64,000 bases of DNA from assembly GCA_963836075.1 (NCBI GenBank), contig CAWIIB010000001.1:256001-320000 (forward strand), written 5' to 3'. This DNA is from an uncultured Acidobacteriota bacterium. GTDB taxonomy: Bacteria > Acidobacteriota > JAQAZP01. Numbering within the stretch: position 1 is the stretch's first letter; each line of letters opens with the position of its first letter. Position numbers and translations under genes: made by a program. Below the pieces are notes generated by a model, which saw nothing but the letters and a program-made list of their open reading frames with translations, ran no database searches and had not been told where the DNA came from. Shown in pieces: positions 2,769 to 16,273 of this stretch.

Positions 2769-5174
2769 TCAGGTGCGCAGGGTCAGTATCAGGTAGCCTC
2801 CGCCGATGCCGAAGAATATATTCGGCGCCCAGGCCGCCAGCAGGGGTGGCAGGGCGCCGAGATCACCCAACTGCTGGCTGAAGGCGATAAAGATCCAGTA
2901 GAGGATGCCGAGGCTGATGCTGAGTCCGATGCCGTAGAGGCTGCCCCTCTTTCCCATGTTGAAGGCGAAGGCGATGCCCAACAGGGCCATGACCAGCGGC
3001 ACAACCGGCATGGCCAGCTTGGAGTGCAAATCCACCAGCAGTTCCGGTTCCACCTGGTAGCCGCTGGCCTTCAATTCTTCGATATAGGAACGCAGTTCGC
3101 CCCAGCTCATCTGCTCCGTTTCCTTCCACTCCTTCTTGAAGTAGAGCGGTGGCTCGTGGAAGGGAAAGGACTGGGATTTGAAGGCTTCGTAGGACACCTC
3201 CTCACCCCGGGAAAACTCCTTGGACCAGCCATTCTTCATCACCCAGCAGTCATCGCTGTACACGGCGTGGCGGGCATAGGTCCAGCGCTTGAGCGAGAAA
3301 TCTTCCGGCGAGAACTCAAAGACCGAGAGGCCGGCGATCACCTCGCGGTCGAAGTTGATGTTCTCATAGTTGTAGATCCTGTTCTCTTCCTCGCCGAACA
3401 TCCATTTGCGGATGCGGTAGCGGGAACTCACCGGCCGGCCCTTGATCACGTCCCTCAACCGGTCGTATTCGGCGTTGGAGGTGGGCAGTATCCGCTCCTC
3501 GAGGTAGAAGTTGAAGACCGAGGTGAGGGCCGCCACCATGAATACGGAGAGCGATATGCGGTAGAGGCTGATCCCGCCGCCCTTGATCGCCGTCACCTCG
3601 TTGTGTTTGGAGAAGATGCCGAAGGTGACCAGCGTGCTCACCAGGTTGATGATCAGCAGGACAAAGAAAATGATCTGCGGCAGGTAAAACTGGTAGTAGC
3701 CCAGCACCGTGCCCAGGGGGATCTCGTTCTTGACGATGTGGTCGAACATCTGGAAGAAGTCGACGATGATAAACAGGGAGAGAAAGCCGATGAAGACCAT
3801 GAAGAAGACGCGGAAATACTGGGAGAGGATGTAGCGGTCCAGCAGGTTGGGGAAGGGGATGTGGATGCGGTGCGAGTTGTGCTGCCGGCGGTCCGTATCG
3901 CGGAAGGGCAGTGGGAGCTGGCCGGTATCGGGGGTGTCCCGGCGCTCCGGGAGGGCCGTGGTGCCGACCGGGGGCCGGGTTTTGGGGGAGAGCCGCAGCA
4001 CCAGCCACTGCCACAGCTTGATCATCAGTGCCGAGAGGTCGAAGTTGACGTTGCGGCTGCGCAGGTTGAGCAGCAGCAGCCCGGCACAGCCCAGCAAAAT
4101 GTTGGGCAACCACATGCCCAGCAGTGGTGGAAGTTTCTCCTGGATCGCCATCGCTTCTCCGGTATCGATCATGATCCAGTAGATGATGATCACACCGATG
4201 GCCATGGCGAATCCCGAGGACTTTCCTCCGCGGGAGTTGGTGATGCCCAGACTGATGCCGATGATCGCCAGGACGATGCAGCTGAAGGGAATGGAAAATT
4301 TCTTGTGGATATTGATCCAGGCGAGGTTGTATCTCGATCGCAACTCCGGGGTGCGGCTCTGCCTGGCAATCTCCAGCAGTTCCATGCTGGTTTTGGCCCG
4401 CAGTTTCGGGTCGTGGACCTGGTCCCGCCGGGTTTTCAAGCGGTTTTCCCGCAGCAGGCCGTCCTTGAGCAGCACCCGCATCTCTCCGAACTTGCTGAAC
4501 TGGAACTTTTCCGGATCCTTGGGGTCACTGGAATTTATGGTGCCGTTGAAGAATTTGAGCCACAGCCGGTCCGCCTGGTCGTCGTAGCGCAGCTGGGCCC
4601 GGCGAGCATTGATCAGCCGCCGGCCTTCCTCCACCGACGATTCAGCTAGAAACACACCCTCCCAGTCATGTCCTTCAGTGGTGTAATCGTTGAAATATAT
4701 GACCTTATTAGGAAACTCCTCATAGAATGTGCGTGGTTCAACGGTGCTCGACATGGCCAGTGAGAATATTTCCTCCTCCAGGCGGAGCAGTGTCTTGTTG
4801 CCCCAGGGGAGGAAAAATACCATCAGGTAGAGGGTGAGCAGAAACGCGCCGGTGGCAAAAACCAGGGTGGGGCCCAGAAGCCTCTGCAGGCTGATCCCGG
4901 CGGAGCGGAAAGCGATGATCTCACTGTCGGCGGAGAGCCGGCTGAAGGCAACAATAATCCCCAGCAGCACGGACATGGGAATGGTGAGCACGATGATGTG
5001 GGGCAGATTGAGCAGAAAAAGCTTTGTTACCAGCACCAGGCCCAGATTCCTTTTCAGGGCCAGTTCGGCGATATCAAAGATGATATCCATCACCATGACA
5101 AAGGTGAAAATGAGCAGGCTGATCAGCGTGGGGGGGAACATCTCGCGGATCAGATATTTTCGAATGGTTTTCAT
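2769..5174 (-). CDS. Fused LPS export permease LptF-LptG (two YjgP/YjgQ domains)
   Basis: Two tandem permease domains (SEIIAFRSAGIS...; NEVTAIKGGGIS...), each with a C-terminal xLGMWLPN / LAAWAPN-like helix. Confidence 0.9.
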   Translation of the reverse strand: MKTIRKYLIREMFPPTLISLLIFTFVMVMDIIFDIAELALKRNLGLVLVTKLFLLNLPHIIVLTIPMSVLLGIIVAFSRLSADSEIIAFRSAGISLQRLLGPTLVFATGAFLLTLYLMVFFLPWGNKTLLRLEEEIFSLAMSSTVEPRTFYEEFPNKVIYFNDYTTEGHDWEGVFLAESSVEEGRRLINARRAQLRYDDQADRLWLKFFNGTINSSDPKDPEKFQFSKFGEMRVLLKDGLLRENRLKTRRDQVHDPKLRAKTSMELLEIARQSRTPELRSRYNLAWINIHKKFSIPFSCIVLAIIGISLGITNSRGGKSSGFAMAIGVIIIYWIMIDTGEAMAIQEKLPPLLGMWLPNILLGCAGLLLLNLRSRNVNFDLSALMIKLWQWLVLRLSPKTRPPVGTTALPERRDTPDTGQLPLPFRDTDRRQHNSHRIHIPFPNLLDRYILSQYFRVFFMVFIGFLSLFIIVDFFQMFDHIVKNEIPLGTVLGYYQFYLPQIIFFVLLIINLVSTLVTFGIFSKHNEVTAIKGGGISLYRISLSVFMVAALTSVFNFYLEERILPTSNAEYDRLRDVIKGRPVSSRYRIRKWMFGEEENRIYNYENINFDREVIAGLSVFEFSPEDFSLKRWTYARHAVYSDDCWVMKNGWSKEFSRGEEVSYEAFKSQSFPFHEPPLYFKKEWKETEQMSWGELRSYIEELKASGYQVEPELLVDLHSKLAMPVVPLVMALLGIAFAFNMGKRGSLYGIGLSISLGILYWIFIAFSQQLGDLGALPPLLAAWAPNIFFGIGGGYLILTLRT

Positions 5175-5404
5175 CTGGGATCTGGACCGCAAAACGCTGT
5201 TGCTGGGATTCTGGGACAGCCAGCTGTAATAAGGGAATTCATTTACCTCGAAAAGATAGCACAGTTGACGGACGCCTTCAAGAAGTCAGTTCTACGGAAG
5301 TCCTGTTTTTCCAAAGGGATTGGATTGCTCAATGGGGGGGGGAAGGCCGGCGGCGGGGGATCGCCCGCGGAATCCTTGAGCTTCCGGTCAACTCAAAATA
5401 CATT

Positions 5405-5432
5405 ACGTCCGATAAGATATATTATGTAAACT
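5405..5432 (+). other. dif site (XerC/XerD chromosome dimer resolution site)
   Basis: ACGTCCGATAA-GATATA-TTATGTAAACT has the 11-6-11 architecture of dif (E. coli GGTGCGCATAA-TGTATA-TTATGTTAAAT) and lies in an intergenic region. Confidence 0.88.
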
Positions 5433-5581
5433 AATACGCGCGGCAGTGTACAGTCGTAGAGCCAGACAGCTTACTGCAAGCCCCTATATTTTAGATGGTT
5501 GTCCTTCTTTTGGTGCCCCCAAAAGCGGTTTCGTGGTAGTGACCCGATGCGGTCAGGACCATTGATGAGTTGGGGTGTCGA

Positions 5582-6487
5582 TCAACTGAGGGGCGCTGAA
5601 TCCAATTCGGATGGCAGCGCAGCCGGAAGCGATGCTGCAGCCGAACCGCTATCTTCTTCGCCGTTACCGACCTGGGTTCGCAGTTCCCTGATGATCTCCT
5701 CCAGGCTGTTGATGATCTCTCGGGGATCAACGTCCTTTTTTCTGAAAGACATGTTCAGGGTGAAGGATTTGTTTTGCGGTTGGAACTTGAATGAGAAGTT
5801 TCTCGGGCGTCCGGCCTTTTTTTTGTCCCGGTCGGACTTCAGGCTGTCCCTCTTGGAACCGCCCTTAAGTATTTGTTCAAAGATTTCCCACATATTTTCC
5901 GGTGTTCCGCCTCTAACTATTTGCAATAACAGTCTTTTAGAGGAAATGTCGGCGCTCCGACATGCCGTTCTCAGATCATCGGGCATTTCAGAGATGTTTA
6001 TGGCCTCGGTGATGGTTGAGCGGGACTTTGAAATCATCATGGCCAATTGTTCATGTGAATGGTCATATTTTCGAGCAAGTTCGCGCAGGGCATCACCCTC
6101 TTCAAAGGGGTGCAGATCCTTACGCTGGAGGTTTTCGATCAGGGAGATTTCGACGATCTCGTGATCCTTGAGCTTCATCTCGATACAGGGGATTTCGGTC
6201 AGTCCGGCCAGAATGGATGCTCGGTAGCGCCTCTCCCCCGCTATGATCCTGAACCGTTCTCCAACCGGCTTGACCAGTATTGGTTCCAGCACGCCCTTCT
6301 GCTTGATCGATTTGGAGAGTTCCGCAAGATCACCGAAGTCCTTGCGTGGCTGCTTTGGATTTGGCTCGATAAGATCGGCCTTGATCAGCCGGCCCACAGA
6401 TTTCCCCTTGCCCGTCAACTCCTCCACAAGGTGGGCTGAAGTCCGGATCCGGGTCTTGCTAGGCAGGCCTTTTTTTCTTTTTTCCAC
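5582..6487 (-). CDS. parB: ParB/Spo0J-family partition protein (non-canonical)
   Basis: PNPKQPRK, GVLEPILV, IIAGERRYRA and LIENLQRKDL motifs plus an HTH; GTG start at 6487 with GAGGAGG RBS, overlapping the parA end. Confidence 0.9.
   Translation of the reverse strand: MEKRKKGLPSKTRIRTSAHLVEELTGKGKSVGRLIKADLIEPNPKQPRKDFGDLAELSKSIKQKGVLEPILVKPVGERFRIIAGERRYRASILAGLTEIPCIEMKLKDHEIVEISLIENLQRKDLHPFEEGDALRELARKYDHSHEQLAMMISKSRSTITEAINISEMPDDLRTACRSADISSKRLLLQIVRGGTPENMWEIFEQILKGGSKRDSLKSDRDKKKAGRPRNFSFKFQPQNKSFTLNMSFRKKDVDPREIINSLEEIIRELRTQVGNGEEDSGSAAASLPAALPSELDSAPLS
5946..5963. repeat. 18-bp near-perfect palindrome within parB (candidate parS-like site)
   Basis: ATGTCGG-CGCT-CCGACAT; 8 of 9 positions pair. 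Confidence 0.4.
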
Positions 6488-7235
6488 GCTTGATAACCTC
6501 CTCGCAGAGTTTGCTGTATTCAGCCGCTCCACTTGAGCGCGGGGCGAAGGTGAAAATGGGTTCCTTGTAGGCCGGGCTCTCCTCAAGTCGCACGCTCTTG
6601 CTGATGCAGGTGGCGAACACCTTGTCTCCGAACACCTGTTCAACCTGCTCCTTGATATCCCGGGCCAACAGGGTCCGTTTGTCGTGAATGGTGATCAGAA
6701 CGCCGAGAACTTCGAGGTCGGGGTTCGGCCGGTCCTTGATCTTTCCCAGGGTCTCAAGCAGATCCTCGGTGCCCTCCAGGGCAAAATAGGAGGACTGAAT
6801 CGGGATGAGCACGTGGGTCGCCGCCACCAGCCCGTTGACCGTGATGATACCCAGTGTGGGCGGTGTGTCGATGATGATGTATTCGAACTGGTCGGCAATC
6901 TCCTCCAGCCGATCCTTTAGGCGGAAGATGGAATCGAGTTCGCCGATCAGGCGGCTTTCCAGTTTGGCCAGTGAAATCTTGGACGGGGCCAGGAAAAGGT
7001 GCTCAAAGGCCGTGGGGACGATGATGTTGGATAACGGCTCCCGGGCATTGGTCAGCACCTCGAAAACCGATTTCTCCAGTGGGTGGACATCCACAAAGGA
7101 GACAGAACTGTTGGACTGGGGATCCATGTCCACCAGCAGAGTTTTGTGCCCCCTCATGGCCAGAGCGGCTGAAAGGTTGATGGCTGTGGTGGTCTTACCG
7201 ACGCCACCCTTTTGGTTGGTGACCGTAATAATCAA
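6459..7235 (-). CDS. parA: ParA/Soj-family ATPase
   Basis: Deviant Walker A NQKGGVGKTT, DMDPQ, IIDTPP. Confidence 0.95.
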   Translation of the reverse strand: MIITVTNQKGGVGKTTTAINLSAALAMRGHKTLLVDMDPQSNSSVSFVDVHPLEKSVFEVLTNAREPLSNIIVPTAFEHLFLAPSKISLAKLESRLIGELDSIFRLKDRLEEIADQFEYIIIDTPPTLGIITVNGLVAATHVLIPIQSSYFALEGTEDLLETLGKIKDRPNPDLEVLGVLITIHDKRTLLARDIKEQVEQVFGDKVFATCISKSVRLEESPAYKEPIFTFAPRSSGAAEYSKLCEEVIKRGKKKKRPA

Positions 7236-7327
7236 CGTATTGCCCTTTCAGATAACGCGGTTCCGGTTCGGCTGTCCGCAAACTGCCACGAGGTCAGGAT
7301 GGATCACACGATTCTTGATAATGAGAA

Positions 7328-7357
7328 ATGATAAATCAGCATTGAACAGCCAGTCAA
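7328..7357 (-). promoter_or_regulatory. Putative sigma70 promoter of parAB
   Basis: TTGACT-18bp-TATCAT on the minus strand. Confidence 0.45.
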
Positions 7358-7445
7358 GCAGATGATGGCTTCCATGATGCTCCAGAGGTGGCCTGACGGG
7401 TAAGAAGAAAGGACATTCGATTGCAGGGCCTTACTTTTAAAGGAG

Positions 7446-7931
7446 TTACATTTCGTATTGCCCGAGATCATCGCCGGAGAGGTTTTCCAGAAGTTTTTTC
7501 AATCGAACAGTCTCGCCGGTGTCACTGGTCAGGTCGATGCTTTTGGCCTGCTCCACCACCGACTCCTCAACGAAGATCGAGGCTTTGGTTCTCAGGGCCA
7601 GGGCGATGGCGTCGCTGGGACGGGAATCTATCTTGATCGTCTTGCCGTTCCGCTGGAGGTAGATATTGGCGTAGAACGTGCTGTCCTTCAACTCGCAAAT
7701 CACGACCTTCTGCAGGGTCGCGTCGAGATCGTCGAGAATCGACTTTATCAGGTCGTGGGTCATTGGCCGGGGAGTGCTGATGTTTTCCACCTGCAGTGCG
7801 ATGGCATTGGCTTCAAAAATGCCGACCCAGATGGGAAGCACACTCTCGCCGCTGATGTTCTTGAGGATGACGATCGGCATATTGGTTATGGGATCGATCA
7901 TCAAGCCCTTGATCTTCATTTCTATGGCCAT
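7446..7931 (-). CDS. Bifunctional nuclease family protein (DUF151)
   Basis: LPIWVGIFEANAIA, PRPMTHDL and DSRPSDAIALA motifs. Confidence 0.92.
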   Translation of the reverse strand: MAIEMKIKGLMIDPITNMPIVILKNISGESVLPIWVGIFEANAIALQVENISTPRPMTHDLIKSILDDLDATLQKVVICELKDSTFYANIYLQRNGKTIKIDSRPSDAIALALRTKASIFVEESVVEQAKSIDLTSDTGETVRLKKLLENLSGDDLGQYEM

Positions 7932-8055
7932 GGATATACGTACCTCTCGTATCACACCGGGTGGCCGGCACGATCAGATCTGACGCAATGGAAGGGCTGA
8001 ATCTACCCTTCACGAACCTGCTGGTTGGTGAATACTGTTACAGCCTTCACTGAAA

Positions 8056-8084
8056 TATATAAGGACTTACATGAACTCTGTCAA
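8056..8084 (-). promoter_or_regulatory. Putative sigma70 promoter of the DUF151 gene
   Basis: TTGACA-17bp-TATATA, overlapping the miaB stop. Confidence 0.6.
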
Positions 8085-9448
8085 GGCATATCTTCAACAC
8101 TCAGCAACTCACCGAACAAAGAGTTGGGATGGGGGCGGCTCACCTTCACCCGGACCAGCCGGCCGCGGGGATCGGCGGGCCGCATGGATGGTCCGGGGGA
8201 TGGAGAATAGTCAAAGTTCACCACACGGTTTCCGCTGTCCCGACCAAAAAACTGGCCCCCGCCCTTCCGGCTCTCCCCTTCCACCAGGACCTCCAGTTCC
8301 GTTCCCACCAGTGCCTGGTGGATTTCCATCTGGATCGATTTCTGCAGATCCTGGAGCCGGGCAAGGCGATGACGTTTAATTTCGTCGCTGACATCGTCCG
8401 GCAGGCGAAAGGCGCGGGTTCCCGGACGGGGATTGTAGATGAAGGAGAAGGTGGCGTCATAGCGCACCTGCTCCATGGCCGAAAGCGTCTGCTGAAAATC
8501 CTCTTCTGATTCCCCCGGAAAGCCGACGATCAGGTCGGTGGAAATGGCGATGTCCGGGATCAACGATTTCAGGAGTTCTGTTTTCTCCAGATACTCCTTC
8601 CTGGAATAGCCCCGGCCCATGGCCTTCAGGACCCTGTTGGAGCCGGACTGCAGGGGCAGATGCAGGTGGCGGCAGACCACACCCCGGTTTTCCGCCATCA
8701 ACCGGGCAAGACGGGGAGTGAAATCACGGGGGTGGGAGACGGTAAACCTCAGCCGGTCCAGCCCGGGACGTGCCGCCGTCTTTTTCAGCAGGGTGGAAAA
8801 GTCGTTACCGCCACTGTCAAGGTAGGAGTTTACATTCTGTCCCAGAAATTCGATTTCCCGCACTCCTCCGGCCAGCAGCAGATCCACCTCCTCGAGGATC
8901 TGTCCCAGCTCACGGCTTTTCTCTCGCCCCCTGACCAGCGGGACGATACAGTAGGCGCAGAAGTTGTCGCAGCCCTCGATTATGGTGACATAGGCTTTCC
9001 AGGGCGAGAGTCGATGAATCGGTTCGTCCACCCTCCCCGGACTCCCGCGGTCCAGGTCCGTGGAGACCAGCGGGCCCTCGCTGTTCCAGATCCGCTCCAG
9101 CAATGCACCGATCTCACCGGCCCTCCTCGTTCCCAAAACAAGGTCCACTGCGGGAATCCGTTCCAGGATCTCTTCCCCTTCCTGTTGGGCCACGCAGCCG
9201 GCAACGCAGATCAGGGGAGTGGCAACGGGTCCGGGCACCTTCAGAGCGGCCAGGCGGCCCAGCCGGGTAAAGACCTTCTGTGCGGCCTTGTCCCGCACGG
9301 AGCAGGTATTGAGGACGATGACCGAGGCCGATTCAGGCTCTGCCGCCCTGCGGTAGCCGCTGCGCTGAAGGCTGTCGGCCAACTGTTCAGAGTCGTGAAC
9401 GTTCATCTGACAGCCCCAGGTTTCGATATGGTAGGTCAGCTCTCTCAT
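8081..9448 (-). CDS. miaB: tRNA-2-methylthio-N6-dimethylallyladenosine synthase
   Basis: TWGCQMN, NTCSVR, radical-SAM CDNFCAYC and a C-terminal TRAM-like domain. Confidence 0.95.
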   Translation of the reverse strand: MRELTYHIETWGCQMNVHDSEQLADSLQRSGYRRAAEPESASVIVLNTCSVRDKAAQKVFTRLGRLAALKVPGPVATPLICVAGCVAQQEGEEILERIPAVDLVLGTRRAGEIGALLERIWNSEGPLVSTDLDRGSPGRVDEPIHRLSPWKAYVTIIEGCDNFCAYCIVPLVRGREKSRELGQILEEVDLLLAGGVREIEFLGQNVNSYLDSGGNDFSTLLKKTAARPGLDRLRFTVSHPRDFTPRLARLMAENRGVVCRHLHLPLQSGSNRVLKAMGRGYSRKEYLEKTELLKSLIPDIAISTDLIVGFPGESEEDFQQTLSAMEQVRYDATFSFIYNPRPGTRAFRLPDDVSDEIKRHRLARLQDLQKSIQMEIHQALVGTELEVLVEGESRKGGGQFFGRDSGNRVVNFDYSPSPGPSMRPADPRGRLVRVKVSRPHPNSLFGELLSVEDMP

Positions 9449-9485
9449 CTTCCTGCATGGGGGATGTGGCGGCCCTGTGGTCGGC

Positions 9486-11243
9486 TCAGTGCAGCTGGCA
9501 GATCAGGCCCTTGGGAAATTTGTAGATCATGGTCTCCAGAACATATTCCCTGATTTCCTGCTCGGTGGTAAATCCCATGATCTTGTTGACCAGCGACCGT
9601 GCTTCACGGATGCGGATTGAGCGGATGACGTTTTTGATGATCGGAATTGCCGTGGGGTGCATGCTCAACTCGCGAAGTCCCAGGCCCAGCAGGATCAAGG
9701 CGTGAAGCGGATCGGAAGCCATCTCACCGCACATGGAGACATCGATGTGACAGGCGTTGGCCGACTCCACCACGAACTTCAGCGTCCGCAGAATTGCCGG
9801 GTGAAGCGGAGTGTAGAGATGGGCGATGCTGTCGTTTCCCCGGTCCGTGGCCAGGCAATACTGAATCAGGTCATTGGTCCCGATACTGAAAAAATCGACT
9901 TCCCGGGCCAGCAGGTCGGCTATGGTGGCCGCAGAGGGAACCTCGATCATGATTCCCAGTTTCATCTGCTCGTCGAATGGCTGGCCTTCACGATGCAAGT
10001 CCTCCTTCACTCCATCGAGGACCATTTTAGCCACCCGCAGTTCCCGCACGCCGGATATCAGGGGGAACATCAGCCGCAGTTTGCCGTGCAATCCGGCTCG
10101 AAGAATTGCCCGCAGCTGTGTCCGGAAGAGATCCTTGCGCTTGAGGCAGAGGCGTATGGCACGCAGTCCCATAACCGGGTTCATCTCGTCGCTCTCCAGC
10201 ACCTCGTGGAAGAATTTCTCTCCACCCAGATCGAGGGTGCGGATCACGGCGAAGTGCGGCTTGCTCTTCTCGGCCAGTGAGCGGTAGACCTGAAAATGCT
10301 CCTCCTCGGTGGGCAGCTGGGGAGAGCACTTTAGAAAGAGGAATTCGGAGCGATAGAGCCCCACCCCCTCGGCCCCGGACATGCTGTTGTTCTCCATTTC
10401 TTCCACCAGCTCGATGTTGGCGCGCAGGTGGATCTGGTGCCCGTCCAGGGTTTCAGCCGGAACGTCCTTGAGACGCAACAGCTCCTCGGCATAGTCGCTG
10501 TATTTCCGGGCCTTGTTGCGCGCTTCGCTGATCAGTGTGGCACTGGGGTTGATCAGTATGGTTCCCTCGTTCCCGTCCAGGACGATCATGTCACCGGTCT
10601 TGATCCGGCCCACAATATCCTGAAATCCGACAGCGGCAGGGATCCTGAGGGATTTGGCGATGATGGCGCTGTGTGAAGTGGGGCCGCCGACTTCCACGAC
10701 AAAACCCACCACCGGCCTGTTTCTGAACGACACGGTCTGCGATGGCGACAGAGCGTGCGCCACCACGATGGTGTCCTCCTTGAGATCCGGCAGATGATCG
10801 GGTTTGAAGTCGGGATCGAGAAGGTGCCGCAGAATGCGGTCCCGAATGTCCTCAAGGTCGATGATCCGTTCCCGGAGGTAATGGTCACCAACACCGCTCA
10901 GAGCGATCACCGTTTCCTGGAAGACTTCCTGGACCGCCCATTCGGCCACCACCAGCTGTTTCCTGATATTGCTGCAGACCTGTTCGATAATGGTCCGGTC
11001 GTGGAGCAACAGAATGTGGGCCTCGAAGATACCGGCGTTATCGTCACCAACTGAACGGCGCACATCGCTTTTCAGATTTTTCAGGTCTCTGCTGGCATTT
11101 TTCAGGGCGGTGCGGAAACGGGAGATTTCAGCGGGCACATGGGATTTGGCTATGCTCTTCCTGGTCAGGACAAATTTCTGCGGATCGAGGACCAGTGCCC
11201 TGCCATAGGCTATCCCTGCTGAGACACCTAGACCTCTAAACAT
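9486..11243 (-). CDS. ptsI: PEP-protein phosphotransferase (PTS enzyme I)
   Basis: GGPTSHSAI phospho-His motif, GLYRSEF, FSIGTNDL, MCGEMA; no N-terminal GAF domain. Confidence 0.95.
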   Translation of the reverse strand: MFRGLGVSAGIAYGRALVLDPQKFVLTRKSIAKSHVPAEISRFRTALKNASRDLKNLKSDVRRSVGDDNAGIFEAHILLLHDRTIIEQVCSNIRKQLVVAEWAVQEVFQETVIALSGVGDHYLRERIIDLEDIRDRILRHLLDPDFKPDHLPDLKEDTIVVAHALSPSQTVSFRNRPVVGFVVEVGGPTSHSAIIAKSLRIPAAVGFQDIVGRIKTGDMIVLDGNEGTILINPSATLISEARNKARKYSDYAEELLRLKDVPAETLDGHQIHLRANIELVEEMENNSMSGAEGVGLYRSEFLFLKCSPQLPTEEEHFQVYRSLAEKSKPHFAVIRTLDLGGEKFFHEVLESDEMNPVMGLRAIRLCLKRKDLFRTQLRAILRAGLHGKLRLMFPLISGVRELRVAKMVLDGVKEDLHREGQPFDEQMKLGIMIEVPSAATIADLLAREVDFFSIGTNDLIQYCLATDRGNDSIAHLYTPLHPAILRTLKFVVESANACHIDVSMCGEMASDPLHALILLGLGLRELSMHPTAIPIIKNVIRSIRIREARSLVNKIMGFTTEQEIREYVLETMIYKFPKGLICQLH

Positions 11244-11255
11244 AAAATTATTACC

Positions 11256-11561
11256 CTATCCGGTAATCTGCTGTTGATGAGCCTCCGGCAGCTCGCCAAA
11301 ACCGTTGGCCACCAGAGCTTTCAACGTGTCCAGCGCGGTCTGCTGGTCCTCACCCGCTACCCGGATGATGATCCGGGTTCCGATGGAGGCCGCCAGGAGC
11401 AGCACACCAAGGATGCTCTTGCCGTCGACCTCGTCTCCCGGCTTGTCCTCCCGGCTCAGTTTGACCTGGCTCTGGAAACCGCTGGCGGTATTGACAAACT
11501 TGGAGGCCGCCCGGGCGTGAAGCCCCAGCTCGTTGATAATCTCGACAGTCTCCTCGATCAT
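11256..11561 (-). CDS. ptsH: HPr phosphocarrier protein
   Basis: GLHARAA (His15) and DGKSILG (Ser46). Confidence 0.93.
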   Translation of the reverse strand: MIEETVEIINELGLHARAASKFVNTASGFQSQVKLSREDKPGDEVDGKSILGVLLLAASIGTRIIIRVAGEDQQTALDTLKALVANGFGELPEAHQQQITG

Positions 11562-11679
11562 ACTGTCCTCGAGATCCGGGCGCGGCCCGGGGCCGCGGTC
11601 TGCTGCCATATTCTTCAGTACACTGTCGCAGAGTGAAGATGTCTTCTTTCAGCCGGTCGGCCGCTGAGAGAGCGGGACG

Positions 11680-12087
11680 TCAATTGCGGTTGAGAATGTC
11701 GCTGGCCACATGGATGCTCTTCTGCCCCTGGGCCCGGATTTTCTGCGCCGCTTCCACCAGATTCCACTTCTCTTTCCTGAGACTGAACAGCTTGATCAGC
11801 ATCGGCAAATTGACGCCGGTAATGATTTCCACCTTGTCGGCTTCCAGGAAGGAAAGGCTCAGATTGGTCGGCGTACCGCCGAACATATCGGTGAGGATCA
11901 GGACACCGTAGCCCTCGCTCACTGTTTCAATTCCCTCCAGGATCGCCCTGCGGGCCTTGCCCACCTCATCATTCCAACCGATGGAGATGGCCTGGATTCC
12001 CTGAAAGTCCTCGCCGATGATCATTCGAGCGGCTTTCACCAGCTCGTCGGCCAGGTTGCCGTGGGTCACAACAAGAATTCCAAACAT
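11680..12087 (-). CDS. PTS EIIA, mannose/fructose family
   Basis: VVTHG, TDMFGGTP, GVNLPML. Confidence 0.92.
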   Translation of the reverse strand: MFGILVVTHGNLADELVKAARMIIGEDFQGIQAISIGWNDEVGKARRAILEGIETVSEGYGVLILTDMFGGTPTNLSLSFLEADKVEIITGVNLPMLIKLFSLRKEKWNLVEAAQKIRAQGQKSIHVASDILNRN

Positions 12088-12226
12088 GATCTTACATCCC
12101 CGGCCTGCCGCCCGGCGGCGCGGACCGTTCTTGACTCTGCCTGTCGGGGAGCTATTCTACCGTCTTCAGGCGGGATGCCGCAAATCATTTCATGCCGCGG
12201 TTCCATCCGCAGAACGGCTTGGCGTC

Positions 12227-13198
12227 TCAACTCCTTTGTCCCCGGCGCAACAGGTTCTCGTCCAGGCGGTCCACAAGTTCACGGGCCCGGTTCACGCCCT
12301 TGAGCTTGAGCAGATGGTTGCGCACCCCCACCTCGATGAGATTGGAGATGTTGCGTCCTGGTGCCACCGGCATCAGCAGCACCGGGATGTCGACGCCCAT
12401 GATCTCCCGGCGAAACTCCTCGACGCCCAGCCGGTCGTAGGCCTGCCCGGCTTTCCATTTGTCCAGGGAAACCATCAGCTCCACCGTCTTGGAACGGCGC
12501 ACCGAGGTCACGCCGAACAGTTCCTCGATGTTGATCACCCCCATCCCCCGGACCTCCATCAGGTGGCGCAGCGGTGCAGGGCTGGTGCCTTCCAGCACGG
12601 AATCAGGCCTCCGCTTGATCAGGATGATGTCGTCGGCGATCAGGCGGTGGCCACGGGAGATCAGGTCCAGTGCGCTCTCGCTCTTGCCGATGCCGCTCTC
12701 CCCCACCAGCAACACTCCCAGGCCGAATATTTCCAGCAGCACGCCGTGGATCTGGGCCGTGGGCGCCAGACGGTCTTCGAGGAAATCGGTGAGCCGCCTG
12801 ATACACACCGAACTGACCAGGCGGCTCTTGATCACCGGCACGTTGTGCTCGTCGGCAAGGCGGAGAAACAGGTCGCAGGCCCGGGAACGGTGGGTCAGGA
12901 CAAAGACGGTGATCTCTTCCGAAAAGACCTGGCGCAGCGTCTCCTCCCAGACCTCGCTCCGCTCTTCCAGGGTCTGCAGGAATTCGGACTCGCTGCGGGC
13001 CAGGATCTGGACCCGGCCCTTGCGGATGTAATCCTGCTTCCCGGCAAAGGAGAGGCCCGGCTTTTGAATCCGGCTGTCGGTGATCAGGTTGGACAGCCCG
13101 CCGCGGCCGGCCAGCAAGCTGGCCTCGATGCCCGGTCGCCCTTCGTCGAGGAGGGCCTGGACCGGGATGCTCTTTTTTTCCAGCGTGTTGTCGGTCAT
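12227..13198 (-). CDS. hprK: HPr kinase/phosphorylase
   Basis: GESGIGKSE Walker A, LIADD, EVRGMGVINI. Confidence 0.95.
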   Translation of the reverse strand: MTDNTLEKKSIPVQALLDEGRPGIEASLLAGRGGLSNLITDSRIQKPGLSFAGKQDYIRKGRVQILARSESEFLQTLEERSEVWEETLRQVFSEEITVFVLTHRSRACDLFLRLADEHNVPVIKSRLVSSVCIRRLTDFLEDRLAPTAQIHGVLLEIFGLGVLLVGESGIGKSESALDLISRGHRLIADDIILIKRRPDSVLEGTSPAPLRHLMEVRGMGVINIEELFGVTSVRRSKTVELMVSLDKWKAGQAYDRLGVEEFRREIMGVDIPVLLMPVAPGRNISNLIEVGVRNHLLKLKGVNRARELVDRLDENLLRRGQRS

Positions 13199-13215
13199 CT
13201 GTGGGGCGCCACGAG

Positions 13216-13830
13216 TTACCGGTCGGGATCGATGAGCCCGAAGTTTCCGTCACTGGACTTGTACATCACATTGATGCGCGAGGAGTCCGCGTCGCGATAG
13301 ACGATGAAGGACATGGGCGAATCGGACAGCCGCAGGGCCGCCTCTTCAACGGTGAGCGGCTTGGCCTCATAGCTGCTGGAGCGGACCACCCGCGGTTGTG
13401 TTTCCGCCTCCCCGTCCAGGTCTCCCCCCTCCTCGTCGCTTGAACCGTCGGCCTCCGCGCCTTCGCCGCCTTCCTCTCCGGCCGCATAGGCGTTCATTTT
13501 CTCCAGCATGGCTTCCTTGCCGCCGCGCATTTTCTTGCGGTCCCGGACCTTTTCTTTCTGCTTCTTGGCCTGCCGTTCAAGTTTTTCCACCACCGCGCCA
13601 ACCGAGGCGTACATGTCGCTGGTCACTTCCTCGCCGTTGAGGGAGAACGGTTTGCCGGTGACGCCGATTTCGGCGATGTGCCGGTATTTTTCAACGCTGA
13701 GCGTGACATTGATGTCCTGGATCGATGTCCAGTACTTGGTGATCTTCTCCAGTTTCTCAGTGACGAATTGCTTCATCGCGTTGCTGACGTCCATCTGCCT
13801 TCCGGTGAAATGGATTCGCACGTCTTTCAT
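13216..13830 (-). CDS. hpf: Ribosome hibernation promoting factor (long HPF) with an acidic linker
   Basis: DMYASVGAVVEKLERQ N-terminal domain and a C-terminal PLTVEEAAL...NVMY..DGNFGLI domain. Confidence 0.9.
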   Translation of the reverse strand: MKDVRIHFTGRQMDVSNAMKQFVTEKLEKITKYWTSIQDINVTLSVEKYRHIAEIGVTGKPFSLNGEEVTSDMYASVGAVVEKLERQAKKQKEKVRDRKKMRGGKEAMLEKMNAYAAGEEGGEGAEADGSSDEEGGDLDGEAETQPRVVRSSSYEAKPLTVEEAALRLSDSPMSFIVYRDADSSRINVMYKSSDGNFGLIDPDR

Positions 13831-13951
13831 GTTTTCCCCCGTTGCCTGATCTTGGGACTCCCTGGGGCGTCCACAACAAAAAGGGGCACGTCATGCCGCT
13901 GCCAAACTCCGGCACTCCCTACCCCGCGGAAACAGGACCTGGATACACTGA

Positions 13952-15406
13952 TTACAAGAGCTGTCGACGATGAGTGGATGATGGTATTTTCATCTCCTCC
14001 CGATACTTGGCCACGGTTCTGCGGGCGATTTCAAGCCCTTCCTGTTTGAGCAGTTTGACGATCGCCGAATCGCTCAGCGGCTTTTCAGCGTTTTCCCCGC
14101 TGACAAAGTCCTTGATCTTCCCCTTGACGCTGAGCGACGACACATCACTGCCGCCATCCGAACTGATGCCGCTGTGGAAGAAGTAGCGCATCTCGAACAC
14201 GCCGCGGGGCGTGTGCATATACTTGTTGGAGACCACCCGGCTCACCGTGGACTCGTGCATCTGGATGTCTTCGGCCACATCGCGCAGCACCAGGGGCTTC
14301 ATGTGGTGGATGCCGTGGTCCAGAAAGGCCCGCTGGTGCTTGACCACACTCTGGGCCACCTTGTAGATGGTGCGCTGCCGCTGTTCGAGACTCTTGATCA
14401 GCCACAGTGCCGAACGGAACTTGTCCCGGATGTAGTTCTTGGTGTCGGCACTGTTTTCCTTGCCCTTCTCCAGCATCTTCCGGTAGTAGGGGCTCAGTTT
14501 GAGCCGGGGCAGCCCGTCCTCGTTGAGCAGCACCACATACTCGTCGTCCACCTTGACCACGTGGATGTCGGGCACCACGTATTGCGAATTGACATTGTTG
14601 TATTTCAGCCCCGGCCGCGGGTCCAGCTGCCGGATGATGTCGAGGTAGCGTCCCACCTCCTCCAGCGAACAGTCCAGCACGGTGGCGATCTCCTTGTAGC
14701 GCCGCTTCTGCAGCAGGTCCAGGTGGTCCCGGACGATCACCTCCACCTCGGTGCCCAGCGCGTCCACCGCCTTGAGTTGCAGCAGCAGGCACTCCTTGAG
14801 GTTCCGCGCAGCGACGCCGGCCGGGTCAAAGGACTGCACCAGGTCGATGGCCCGGGCGACGGTTTCCAGCCCATACCCGCCCATGGTCTGCAACTCATCG
14901 TCGCTGGCCATCAACATTCCGTCTTCGTTGAGATTGCCGATCACCGCTTCGGCAGCCTCGCGCAGGGATTCGTCGGACTGGGACACTCCAAGCTGCCACT
15001 GCAGGTGGTCGGTGAGGTTGGGCGGTTTCTGCAGAAAGTTCTCATACGAAGGCAGTTCACGGACTTCGGACATTCCCTGGAAGGTGCGCGGTCCGATGGC
15101 CGGGTCGAGGTATTCCTGAAAATAGGAATCCATGTCGATTTCGCTGAATGAATCCTCCTTGACCTCCGGCTCGGTCTTTTCCACGGGAGGGCTTTCGGCT
15201 TCCGGCTGCTCCGCGGCGCCCGGTTCGGTGGGCGGCTCCACCGCGGTCTCCTCCAGCACCGGGTTCTCCACCAGTTCCTGGGTCAGCACGTCCTGCAGTT
15301 CCAGGCGGTTCAACTGCAGCAGTTTGATCGCCTGCTGCAGCGACGGAGTCATGATCAGCTTCTGGGTCAGCTTGAGGGACAAGCTGAGTCGTTGGTCGAA
15401 CGCCAT
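13952..15406 (-). CDS. rpoN: RNA polymerase sigma-54 factor
   Basis: LQQAIKLLQL region I, HESTVSR and the RpoN box ARRTVAKYRE. Confidence 0.97.
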   Translation of the reverse strand: MAFDQRLSLSLKLTQKLIMTPSLQQAIKLLQLNRLELQDVLTQELVENPVLEETAVEPPTEPGAAEQPEAESPPVEKTEPEVKEDSFSEIDMDSYFQEYLDPAIGPRTFQGMSEVRELPSYENFLQKPPNLTDHLQWQLGVSQSDESLREAAEAVIGNLNEDGMLMASDDELQTMGGYGLETVARAIDLVQSFDPAGVAARNLKECLLLQLKAVDALGTEVEVIVRDHLDLLQKRRYKEIATVLDCSLEEVGRYLDIIRQLDPRPGLKYNNVNSQYVVPDIHVVKVDDEYVVLLNEDGLPRLKLSPYYRKMLEKGKENSADTKNYIRDKFRSALWLIKSLEQRQRTIYKVAQSVVKHQRAFLDHGIHHMKPLVLRDVAEDIQMHESTVSRVVSNKYMHTPRGVFEMRYFFHSGISSDGGSDVSSLSVKGKIKDFVSGENAEKPLSDSAIVKLLKQEGLEIARRTVAKYREEMKIPSSTHRRQLL

Positions 15407-15529
15407 CTGGTATCGCCTCAAAAACCTTTCATGGTCTGGTCAACACTTCTGCTCGGGGCACCGGCTTCCGCTGTAATCCGTTTCGGCCGATTGGGCCCCG
15501 AGGATTACCCCCGGTTGCCGTTTGGGCTG

Positions 15530-16273
15530 TCAGTTCAAGCGAAAATGTTCGCCGAGATAGATTCTCCGGACCTCTTCGTCCTCCGCCAGATCGGACGGGG
15601 ACCCGGTGCGGAAAATCTCGCCCTCCTTGATGATGTAGGCCCGATCGGTAATCTGCAGGGTTTCCCGCACGTTGTGGTCGGTGATCAGAATCCCGATGCC
15701 CTTGTCACGCAGATGAAGTATCAGCTTTTGAATCTCCAGCACGGCCTTGGGGTCGATGCCGGCGAAAGGTTCGTCGAGCAGGATGAAAAAGGGGGAGATC
15801 ACCAGTGAACGGCTGATTTCCACCCGACGCCGCTCACCGCCGGAGAGCGAATAGGCCTTGTGCTTGGCCAGGTGCTCCACACCGAGTTCCCGCAGCAGTT
15901 CTCCCAGCCGCCTGGTCCGCTCGGCTGAGGTCATGCGCATCGACTCCAGGATCGCCAGCAGGTTCTCCTCCACGGTCAATTTGCGGAAGATCGACGCCTC
16001 CTGGGGCAGGTAGCTGATGCCGCTCTTGGCCCGGAGATACATCGGCAGGGTGGTGATGTCCCGGCCATCCAGGAACACCTGCCCGCTGTTCGGTCTGATC
16101 AGGCCGAGGATCATGTAGAAGGTGGTGGTCTTCCCGGCGCCGTTGGGCCCCAGCAGGCCGACGATCTCGCCTTTGCGCACTTCCACCGAGACGCGGTTCA
16201 CCACCTGGCGGCCCCGGTAGGACTTGACCAGCTTGTCCGTACTCAGGCAATGCTCGGAACCGTTGGTGGACAT
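15530..16273 (-). CDS. lptB: LPS export ABC ATPase
   Basis: [36 protein letters not shown]. Confidence 0.96.

Follow-up and report, generated by a model that had tools for sequence, protein, structure and literature searches.

A ParAB gene pair with a candidate palindromic site of its own lies beside the dif-like site at the skew-defined replication terminus of an Acidobacteriota chromosome

We analyzed a 64,000-nucleotide stretch of contig CAWIIB010000001.1 (termed C1) of an uncultured Acidobacteriota bacterium (GCA_963836075.1), referred to as "the window" below. The following features were found around the locus of interest (coordinates are those of the window).

2769..5192, reverse strand: a fused lptF-lptG permease gene (context); the dif-like site lies upstream of it.
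5405..5432, forward strand: a dif-like site (11-6-11; ACGTCCGATAA / GATATA / TTATGTAAACT), the presumed XerCD chromosome-dimer resolution site.
5582..6487, reverse strand: parB2, encoding a 301-aa ParB-family protein (predicted CTPase) of a clade distinct from Spo0J.
5947..5962, no strand given: the parS2 candidate TGTCGGCGCTCCGACA, a 16-bp near-palindrome inside parB2 (codons for C-R-S-A-D-I).
6459..7235, reverse strand: parA2, encoding a 258-aa ParA/Soj-type deviant Walker-A ATPase, which overlaps parB2 by 29 bp.
7328..7357, reverse strand: a promoter-like site upstream of parA2 (TTGACT-18-TATCAT).
7446..7955, reverse strand: a BFN/DUF151 (bifunctional nuclease domain) gene, the conserved upstream neighbor.
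8081..9448, reverse strand: miaB (context, the conserved terminus block).

The genes were identified by Pfam profile searches. ParA2 matched AAA_31 (187 bits) and CbiA (87 bits), carries KGGVGKTT, and is 43% identical to the origin ParA of the same genome over 251 residues. ParB2, the best start of which is the GTG at 6487 preceded by GAGGAGG and the stop codon of which lies at 5582-5584, matched ParB_N (92.5 bits) and HTH_ParB (42.1 bits against a cut-off of 22.6), as well as TIGR00180 (145 bits against a cut-off of 58.45). The BFN/DUF151 gene matched BFN_dom (143.7 bits), miaB matched UPF0004, Radical_SAM and TRAM, and the lptF-lptG gene matched LptF_LptG in two stretches (521.8 bits). The promoter-like site is a consensus match only, as three such sites were found in the region against 1.9 expected, which is not significant.

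The initial annotation described a non-canonical parAB operon with a dif-like site about 150 bp from the parB stop, and this observation was confirmed. The 28-mer occurs once, exactly, in the window and ends 150 bp from the parB2 stop, while none of 100 dinucleotide shuffles gave a match within three mismatches. The absence of the usual oriC neighbors and of canonical parS noted there also held: dnaA, mnmE, mnmG and rsmG are not in the window but on another contig, C9, and no match to canonical parS (TGTTNCACGTGNAACA) was found within three mismatches anywhere in the window. The GERR motif is present (IIAGERRYRA), and the recognition-helix stretch of ParB2 (KSRSTITEAINIS) indeed differs from that of the genome's own Spo0J (KERATVANMLRLL). 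The C-terminal part was likewise claimed to differ from Spo0J types. It has no significant sequence similarity to Spo0J, but the AlphaFold model gives it a strand-strand-helix layout (strands at 230-235 and 244-249 and a helix at 255-279; block pLDDT of about 76-87), although this rests on the model without a separate match to a solved ParB C-terminal domain, the PDB hits listed being C-terminally truncated proteins. Such a layout is that of the ParB dimerization domain. Thus, the claimed difference holds for the sequence and probably not for the fold.

The genome encodes three proteins with ParB_N hits. One belongs to an ordinary cluster, mnmE-mnmG-rsmG-[2 x GTTCCACGTGGAAC]-parA-parB, located 10 kb from dnaA on C9 (canonical-type sites at C9:895414 and C9:895452), and another lies on contig C4, which also carries canonical-type sites, in an 84%-identical copy of that origin region. 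The third is ParB2. The cumulative GC skew of the 6.2-Mb genome peaks on C1 at 264 kb (1-kb bins), and the dif-like site at C1:261,405 lies within 3 kb of this maximum, whereas the minimum is a trough on C9 at 790-910 kb that holds dnaA. Octamers whose strand skew was learned on C9 alone flip polarity on C1 at about 255-268 kb, within about 7 kb of the dif-like site. The core TCCGATAA-N6-TTATGT has only one exact match in the genome; the second hit, with one mismatch, is 225 kb away and looks like chance. The arms CCGATAA / TTATGT..AA.T match the Frankia alni dif (PMC3025954), and across the phylum the arms are conserved and the spacer is variable. XerD is encoded at C1:206229 (341 bits, above the cut-off of 329.6), and a second recombinase at C9:1338062, presumably XerC, scored 301 bits, albeit against the XerD model only.

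ParB2 is 34% identical to the genome's own Spo0J over 157 residues. The motifs GERR, ENLQR and PNPxQPR are invariant in 30 of 30 aligned relatives. The predicted structure matched CTP-bound ParBs, Noc and KorB, and the best match was Caulobacter ParB-parS (6t1f_D; TMt 0.84, rmsd 2.6). In the ParB phylogeny, inferred with the quick IQ-TREE search only, 25 ParB2 sequences were separated from 21 Spo0J sequences of the phylum plus 10 of other taxa by a branch with an SH-aLRT of 100%. Several groupings inside the ParB2 clade agree with the family codes assigned to the genomes and with the Spo0J tree. Only the first 27 loci were considered for this tree, and four sequences (G005, G023, G025 and L012; frameshifted, stop-containing, not retrieved or unpublished) were excluded. 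In the one search that extended beyond the phylum, the only full-length relatives were Acidobacteriota MAGs or unclassified MAGs.

To find a candidate DNA target, we first searched the two intergenic regions alone for inverted repeats, which gave nothing useful. The palindrome TGTCGGC-NN-GCCGACA appeared only when near-palindromes were compared across 27 loci. In the genome studied here, TGTCGGCGCTCCGACA carries one mismatch to the consensus but is the only site within one mismatch of TGTCGGCGCGCCGACA and the only TGTCGG-N4-CCGACA. This count is not by itself unusual, as 20 arm-shuffled controls gave 0-5; its weight comes from its position and from the phylum-wide co-occurrence. Across 401 genomes of the phylum, exact TGTCGGCNNGCCGACA was present in 175 of 232 ParB2-positive genomes and in 4 of 169 ParB2-negative ones, inside, just upstream or just downstream of parB2 and usually within 1 kb of it. 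All 13 perfect sites found among the first 41 genomes were in ParB2-positive genomes, and in 10 of those 11 genomes they lay within 5.3 kb of parB2. Related genomes are not independent, so that a Fisher test on these counts overstates the case; the 27 discovery loci are part of the 401 genomes counted, and the E-value cut-off of 1e-42 for "ParB2-type" was chosen after seeing the bimodal scores. Where the palindrome lies inside parB2, it forces the residues C-R-R-A-D-I, while genomes with other residues at that position (TREAGI, LESAGI, LQEGGV and others) carry it in the flanking intergenic DNA instead, implying that the site is selected as DNA. On the other hand, 57 of the 232 ParB2-positive genomes lack the exact site, and whole families such as f29 (2 of 27), f7, f8, f13 and f4 show none, so the site is either variable or not universal. 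For f29, we considered a variant, ACAGACT-NN-AGTCTGT, two copies of which lie just downstream of parB2 in genome G034. This motif proved to be a dispersed repeat with 81-203 copies per genome in 3 of 5 f29 genomes, and was rejected.

The dif core is mostly single-copy in 128 of the 401 genomes. In 65 of 65 cases in which dif and parB2 share a contig, dif lies 3' of parB2: within 250 bp in 39, within 1 kb in 55 and within 2.5 kb in 62 (median 202 bp), spread over about 31 family codes by our count. In the remaining three (G017, G278 and G031), dif is 22, 73 and 6 kb away, respectively, and in 10 of 75 genomes the two lie on different contigs. The order miaB-BFN-parA2-parB2 is kept in 22 of 27 related loci, and parA2 is adjacent to parB2 in 25 of 27. 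The synteny of dif, parAB, DUF151 and miaB, which had been set beforehand as a test, is conserved across the phylum. In 8 of 8 evaluated near-complete chromosomes, each a single contig except G004 (a 5.87-Mb contig of a 3-contig assembly), parB2 lies 46-50% of the chromosome length away from dnaA. The genome sizes used here are rounded, and three single-contig genomes of the family f68 (G186, G236 and G381) with dnaA positions were left out. No exact dif core was found in the families f3 and f21 (0 of 15 and 0 of 11 genomes; G004, G039 and G022 belong here). The one-mismatch hits are 39 kb from parB2 in G004 and near the origin in G039, the latter probably by chance, so that the terminus placement in those genomes rests on the distance from dnaA only.

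The initial annotation interpreted the locus as a second ParAB with its own DNA target that may position or segregate the terminus, analogous to MatP/matS, and possibly as a domesticated plasmid cassette captured by Xer recombination. The analysis bears this interpretation out only in part. A second ParAB pair, its location at the skew-defined terminus next to a unique dif-like site and a candidate target of its own, which had not been seen in the initial annotation, are supported, whereas positioning or segregation of the terminus remains inference, the MatP/matS analogy holds for location only, and the plasmid capture has no support.

We propose, with moderate confidence, that the window holds a complete second ParABS-type module (parA2, parB2 and a dedicated parS2), which is inherited vertically in most Acidobacteriota and is physically coupled to dif at the replication terminus. 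In this view, ParB2, a CTPase-type ParB with all nucleotide-binding motifs, would be loaded as a clamp at parS2 (one site here, 1-5 elsewhere) and spread over the neighboring few kb including dif, about 0.5 kb away here, so that the terminus would be tagged with a nucleoprotein complex distinct from the Spo0J-parS complex at the origin. ParA2, a Soj-like ATPase, would act on this complex through the conserved basic N-terminal peptide of ParB2 (K/R-R-G-L-P...), holding the single unreplicated terminus at mid-nucleoid and driving the two sister termini apart after replication and dimer resolution. The origin and terminus systems would be kept apart by different recognition helices and sites. The genes, their family membership, the uniqueness of the site and its co-occurrence with ParB2, the terminus location and the conserved linkage to dif were established by the present analysis. 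In contrast, ParB2-parS2 binding, CTP binding, hydrolysis and CTP-dependent spreading, the ParA2-ParB2 interaction, FtsK-dependent Xer recombination at the dif-like site and the cellular role are inferred from sequence comparison alone, in the absence of binding, localization or phenotype data.

Alternatively, the module may work but have a job unrelated to the terminus, such as self-regulation or positioning some other cargo, and sit beside dif only because an ancient insertion landed in a terminus gene block that rarely rearranges. In ParB2-negative genomes, miaB-BFN lies 0.8-2.8 kb from dif in 4 of 10 loci, and dif lies directly upstream of lptFG in 2 of 10 (G018 and G280), as in several ParB2-positive loci, with serC or an aspartokinase/homoserine-dehydrogenase gene filling the gap. 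The block is therefore conserved without the par genes, miaB-BFN belongs to it rather than to the par module, and part of the parB2-dif adjacency could be inherited synteny rather than selection. The three cases with dif 6-73 kb away also fit this view. Nevertheless, in G027 and G034 the flanking synteny is gone but dif still follows parB2 within about 0.1-0.9 kb (in G027, parS2-parB2-dif stay together), dif is always on the 3' side, and the only sites of the palindrome in most genomes are at this locus, so whatever ParB2 marks is this piece of chromosome. We regard this alternative as unlikely.

It is somewhat less likely still that ParB2-parS2 works mainly without partition, as a terminus-bound clamp that loads SMC-type complexes, modulates FtsK/XerCD action at dif or acts like Noc to time division over the terminus, with ParA2 as an accessory. 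Two of 27 loci (G027 and G009) have parB2 without an adjacent parA2, and ParB2 of G027 lacks the N-terminal peptide while parS2 (overlapping its ATG) and dif are retained, which argues that the ParB2 role does not always need ParA2. ParB-fold CTPases with non-partition roles (Noc, KorB and PadC) are among the structural hits. Against this, parA2 is adjacent in 25 of 27 loci, overlaps parB2 here and is well conserved (53-67% identity in the more distant loci; 97% in the same-genus G002), the basic N-terminal peptide of ParB2 is conserved in most sequences, and ParB2 does not reach the cut-off of the Noc model.

A recent or recurrent integration of a plasmid or IMEX par cassette at dif is very unlikely: although the locus is immediately next to dif, GC is lower here (49-58% over 5000-8000) than the genome mean (64%) and ParB2 is a long-branched clade outside all sampled Spo0J, compatible with a foreign origin long ago, there is a single dif-like site, only parA2 and parB2 lie between BFN and dif, no integrase, replication or phage genes lie between lptFG and BFN, the flanks are the same housekeeping genes in about 30 families, the ParB2 groupings partly follow the family codes and the Spo0J tree, the best plasmid matches are only 29-39% identical (no closer than chromosomal ParBs) and mostly on records of 1.7 Mb or more, the low GC extends over neighboring housekeeping genes up to about 16 kb, and neither an empty dif-BFN junction with duplicated dif arms in close relatives nor near-identical cassettes on plasmids were seen. 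An ancient capture cannot be excluded.

In its furthest reading, which we hold only tentatively, most Acidobacteriota would have two centromeres on one chromosome, the usual Spo0J-parS at the origin and a separate CTP-switch ParB2-parS2 complex that coats dif and is moved by its own ParA2. The terminus would then be actively held at mid-cell and the sister termini actively pulled apart, coupled to XerCD/FtsK dimer resolution, as a ParABS-based solution to the task that MatP, ZapT or passive mechanisms perform in model bacteria. Reviews describe ParABS as an origin-segregation machine (PMC7022226), and how termini are positioned and separated is known for only a few model bacteria, through unrelated proteins. 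Our literature searches, mostly confined to titles and the beginnings of abstracts, found no description of a terminus-linked ParABS, and the palindrome searched as text returned no paper. A phylum-wide ParABS variant with orthogonal specificity, hard-wired to dif, would be the first natural terminus centromere, and makes the question of whether bacteria actively segregate their termini directly testable, with one protein, one 16-bp site and a clear prediction for ChIP-seq, imaging and Hi-C. It also offers a natural pair of non-cross-reacting ParB/parS systems in one cell, useful for studying ParB specificity and as orthogonal locus tags, and an annotation rule for a major soil phylum, in which parS2 plus parB2 marks the terminus and dif in draft genomes.

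The chromosomal ParABS (Soj/Spo0J-parS) at oriC shares with the present system the order parA-parB, a ParA with a deviant Walker A motif, a ParB with the ParB_N CTPase motifs, an HTH and a strand-strand-helix C-terminus (here predicted from the model), and a 16-bp palindrome that often lies inside or beside parB, with few sites per genome clustered around the gene. The classic parS of B. subtilis also lies inside spo0J. In contrast to the origin system, with which it co-exists in the same chromosome, ParB2 is encoded at the terminus next to dif and antipodal to dnaA, does not group with the Spo0J orthologues, and has a different candidate palindrome (TGTCGGC-NN-GCCGACA against GTTCCACGTGGAAC), a divergent recognition helix (HTH_ParB at 42 bits against 123 bits for the genome's own Spo0J) and a different N-terminal peptide (RGLP..MRHD.HxVEEL against LGRGLxALL).

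MatP/matS, the Ter macrodomain organizer of enterobacteria and vibrios, is likewise a site-specific DNA-binding system dedicated to the terminus region around dif, but the resemblance is positional only. ParB2, with its predicted ParB fold, is not homologous to MatP, and the parS2 candidate occurs at 1-5 sites next to the gene, against 23 matS over 800 kb (PMC3330122). The present system further has an ATPase partner and presumably CTP-driven spreading. Secondary-replicon ParABS systems, such as those of Vibrio chromosome 2, Burkholderia replicons and type Ia plasmids, are also second ParAB pairs with their own parS specificity that avoids cross-talk with the main system, but those serve the origin of a separate replicon (PMC10287910), whereas here both systems lie on one chromosome, at opposite poles of the replication map. 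Finally, Noc, the nucleoid occlusion ParB paralogue of Firmicutes, co-exists with Spo0J, has a changed DNA specificity and is among the structural hits (7nfu, TMt 0.74). However, ParB2 scored below the cut-off of the Noc model (TIGR04285; 141.4 against 315 bits) and is paired with its own ParA, and Noc has many sites that are excluded from the terminus, while in most genomes the only sites of the parS2 palindrome are at the terminus locus.

The region of interest lies in the 64-kb window at positions 256,001-320,000 of contig C1, and its genes were assigned by ORF calling and profile searches. Read from high to low coordinates, with all of the genes on the minus strand, the region holds:

9448-8081 (-), miaB
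7955-7446 (-), a BFN/DUF151 gene
7235-6459 (-), parA2
6487-5582 (-), parB2
a 389-bp spacer
5192-2769 (-), a fused lptF-lptG gene
lpxB (-)

The 28-bp dif-like sequence reported in the initial annotation was found exactly at 5405-5432, ending 150 bp from the parB2 stop codon, and no shuffle of the window gave a match. On the other hand, no canonical parS was found within three mismatches anywhere in the 64 kb. The observation made in the initial annotation, namely a parAB pair beside a dif-like site and without a canonical parS, was thus confirmed. We place the start of ParB2 at GTG 6487, which follows a GAGGAGG Shine-Dalgarno sequence, giving a protein of 301 aa whose gene overlaps parA2 by 29 bp. 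In the lptF-lptG gene (2769-5192), the two genes are fused into a single ORF of 807 aa with two LptF_LptG stretches, and the fused form recurs next to dif in other genomes of the phylum. Downstream of miaB, ptsI, HPr, a mannose-type IIA, HPr kinase, hpf and rpoN form one co-oriented run (9486-15421, minus strand), of which the hprK-IIA-HPr-ptsI-miaB part recurs in distant genomes of the phylum. The GC content is 49-64% at about 3000-16000 against a genome mean of 64%, and is lowest (49-53%) over dif-parB2. As the low-GC stretch covers housekeeping genes (ptsI, HPr, hprK, hpf and rpoN), we regard it as a property of the terminus region rather than of an island.

The genome comprises 10 contigs of 6.23 Mb in total, with 64% GC, a completeness of 94.7% and a contamination of 4.6%. 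Cumulative GC skew, whose computation had been suggested in the initial annotation as a check, rises on C1 to a maximum at 264 kb (1-kb bins) and then falls for 2 Mb, and dif is at C1:261,405. In contrast, the skew on a second contig, C9, falls to a flat trough at 790-910 kb and then rises for 2.6 Mb. That trough holds dnaA (C9:904,204), as well as a textbook mnmE-mnmG-rsmG-parA-parB cluster with two GTTCCACGTGGAAC palindromes located 38 bp apart between rsmG and parA. If the contigs are joined in the only way that keeps the skew monotonic, the two replichores are calculated to be about 2.9 Mb each. Furthermore, the G-rich octamers whose strand bias was learned on C9 alone flip their polarity on C1 between about 255 and 268 kb. 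The dif core TCCGATAA-N6-TTATGT has one exact occurrence in the genome, and XerD is encoded. Thus, the parAB of the window is a second system and sits at the terminus. A third ParB hit was found on contig C4, of which positions 1-20300 are colinear with the origin region of C9 (C9:890418-910439) at about 84% nucleotide identity and carry their own split dnaA, two perfect TGTTCCACGTGGAACA sites and a parB. C4 is most simply the origin region of a co-binned related strain, consistent with the contamination of 4.6%, rather than a true duplication.

ParA2 is a standard deviant-Walker-A ParA that is 43% identical to the origin ParA. ParB2 is 34% identical to the genome's own Spo0J, over the N-terminal and HTH parts only. 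ParB2 passes the TIGR00180 model, and its closest solved relative by sequence is Thermus Spo0J (E = 2.5e-36). An AlphaFold model built on 30 relatives (mean pLDDT 75.7) matches CTP-bound ParBs, Noc and KorB, the best superposition being on Caulobacter ParB-parS (TMt 0.84), and its C-terminus is predicted to be strand-strand-helix. PNPxQPR, GERR and ENLQR are invariant in 30 of 30 relatives.

To search for a cognate site, we compared near-palindromes across 27 ParB2 loci and found one shared 16-mer, TGTCGGCGCGCCGACA. In this genome, the only site within one mismatch is TGTCGGCGCTCCGACA at 5947-5962 of the window, inside parB2, and it is also the only TGTCGG-N4-CCGACA in the genome. In the first 41 genomes examined, matches with at most one mismatch occur in 18 of 27 ParB2-positive genomes and in 1 of 14 ParB2-negative ones. 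All 13 perfect sites are in ParB2-positive genomes, and in 10 of those 11 genomes they lie within 5.3 kb of parB2. We then analyzed 401 genomes sampled evenly from the phylum, in which a ParB2-type protein (E <= 1e-42) is present in 232 genomes and in 160 of 227 genera, but is missing from whole families (for example, 0 of 33, 0 of 30 and 0 of 25). The exact pattern TGTCGGC-NN-GCCGACA is present in 179 of the 401 genomes, overlapping with ParB2 as follows.

Co-occurrence of ParB2 and the exact pattern in 401 genomes
ParB2-positive: pattern present in 175, absent from 57
ParB2-negative: pattern present in 4, absent from 165

These counts need to be read with the reservations that related genomes are not independent, that both the ParB2 threshold and the motif were defined on data overlapping the test set, and that two unpublished genomes (coded G025 and G152) are included, albeit no conclusion rests on them. 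For the 57 ParB2-positive genomes lacking the exact site, no variant site was found. Instead, a dispersed palindromic repeat, ACAGACT-NN-AGTCTGT, was detected in three genomes of the family coded f29 (G034, G064 and G137; for example, at 7891-7963 of the locus L109). This repeat often occurs in pairs about 35-57 bp apart, with 81-203 copies per genome, is absent from two other f29 genomes, and looks like a REP-type element. Most genomes possess a single copy of the candidate site and a few have up to five, which cluster around parB2 where several exist. In the genome G160, there are four sites between -39 and +14 kb (G160:C1:1260076-1313255), and G160, G101 (contig C60), G110 and G176 have 4-5 sites spread over tens of kb around parB2, unlike the single site found here.

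The position of the candidate site varies among genomes: inside parB2 at codon ~175, tens of bp after the stop, about 0.9 kb upstream ahead of parA2, or over the parB2 start codon. When the site lies inside the gene, it encodes C-R-R-A-D-I, while the genomes with other residues at that position carry the site outside the gene. This complementarity shows that the DNA sequence itself is what is kept, and is our main reason for terming the site parS2.

The linkage to dif and to the terminus was then examined across the phylum. The gene order miaB-BFN-parA2-parB2 holds in 22 of 27 loci, and parA2 is adjacent to parB2 in 25 of 27. The dif core was found, mostly in a single copy, in 128 of 401 genomes, including families without ParB2. 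Three genomes, G220, G351 and G113, carry 8, 5 and 3 copies of the core, respectively, with near-identical spacers within a genome, which may be Xer-exploiting mobile elements or repeated Xer sites on plasmids. The positions of both parB2 and dif were listed for 75 genomes, in 65 of which the two share a contig. In all 65, dif is on the 3' side of parB2, within 250 bp in 39, within 1 kb in 55 and within 2.5 kb in 62, with a median of 202 bp, and the cases cover about 31 family codes. The exceptions are 6, 22 and 73 kb. In eight chromosomes (G004, G073, G093, G110, G258, G325, G334 and G367; four of them belonging to one family), parB2 lies 46-50% of the chromosome away from dnaA, with genome sizes being rounded. 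Each of these is a single contig except G004, which is a 5.87-Mb contig of a 3-contig assembly. In three of the eight (G093, G110 and G334), the dif core lies 31-799 bp from parB2. Two further assemblies give distances of 2.46 of ~5.1 Mb and 3.01 of ~6.5 Mb.

Altogether, the best reading is a second ParABS whose partition complex includes dif. In this view, ParB2-CTP clamps would load at parS2 and spread over the neighboring kilobases, ParA2 would position this complex on the nucleoid and separate the sister complexes late in the cycle, and the divergent helix and site would keep this system from cross-talking with the origin system. What the present analysis shows is limited to the parts of the system, their conservation and their map position, while binding, spreading, the interaction with ParA2 and the phenotype are inferred from what is established for the ParB family. 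The interpretation offered in the initial annotation is thus partly supported: the pair is a second ParAB at the terminus with a candidate DNA target of its own, whereas a role in positioning or segregating the terminus remains an inference, and the capture of a plasmid par cassette by Xer recombination found no support.

An alternative that needs to be considered is frozen synteny, in which the role of the system is unrelated to the terminus. Among 10 dif loci of ParB2-negative genomes, lptFG follows dif directly in 2 (G018 and G280), and miaB-BFN lies 0.8-2.8 kb before dif in 4 (G019, G179, G192 and G280) with serC or an aspartokinase/homoserine-dehydrogenase gene in between, while the remaining 5 showed none of the query genes. 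The terminus of this phylum therefore sits in an old, stable gene block in at least some lineages, and a part of the parB2-dif adjacency may be inherited rather than selected. Against pure inheritance stands the genome G027, in which every other neighbor has changed but parS2-parB2-dif remain together within about 0.9 kb, and G034 also keeps dif 0.9 kb after parB2 without lptFG. Second, the system may play a non-partition role at dif, such as SMC loading, modulation of FtsK/Xer or Noc-like division timing. The parB2 of G027 (locus L116, 7961-8865) is an orphan encoding 247 aa, with no parA2 nearby and without the N-terminal peptide. Its ATG is the center of the parS2 palindrome (TGTCGGCATGCCGACA), and dif lies 135 bp after its stop. 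This suggests that the ParB2-parS2-dif core can act without ParA2, and the G027 version may be a ParA-independent, self-regulated form. Finally, a recently captured mobile cassette is very unlikely, as there is one dif, the context is the same phylum-wide and no plasmid relatives are close, albeit an ancient capture cannot be excluded.

Literature searches, together with a ParB review (PMC7022226) and the dif-prediction paper (PMC3025954), gave no description of a terminus-linked ParABS or of this palindrome, and the source databases label the protein only as a generic ParB-family partition protein. Two things are distinctive in ParB2. The recognition helix reads KSR(S/T)xITE(A/S)L in place of K(S/E)RxxVANxLRLL, and the N-terminal peptide reads (K/R)RGLP....MRHD.H(F/Y)VEEL in place of the Spo0J LG(R/K)GLxALL. 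In a quick maximum-likelihood tree, 25 ParB2 sequences form one side of a long branch with an SH-aLRT of 100%, and on the other side 21 Spo0J sequences from the same phylum and 10 from other taxa intermingle. Several groupings inside the ParB2 clade agree with the family codes (for example, G004+G039+G022, G014+G031, G029+G011 and G008+G026), and G004+G039 and G017+G034 recur in the Spo0J tree. ParB2 does not pass the Noc model, and plasmid ParBs (29-39% identity) are no closer to it than Spo0J of other phyla (37-49%). The genomes with 4-5 parS2 sites around parB2, in turn, resemble the multi-parS arrays at origins.
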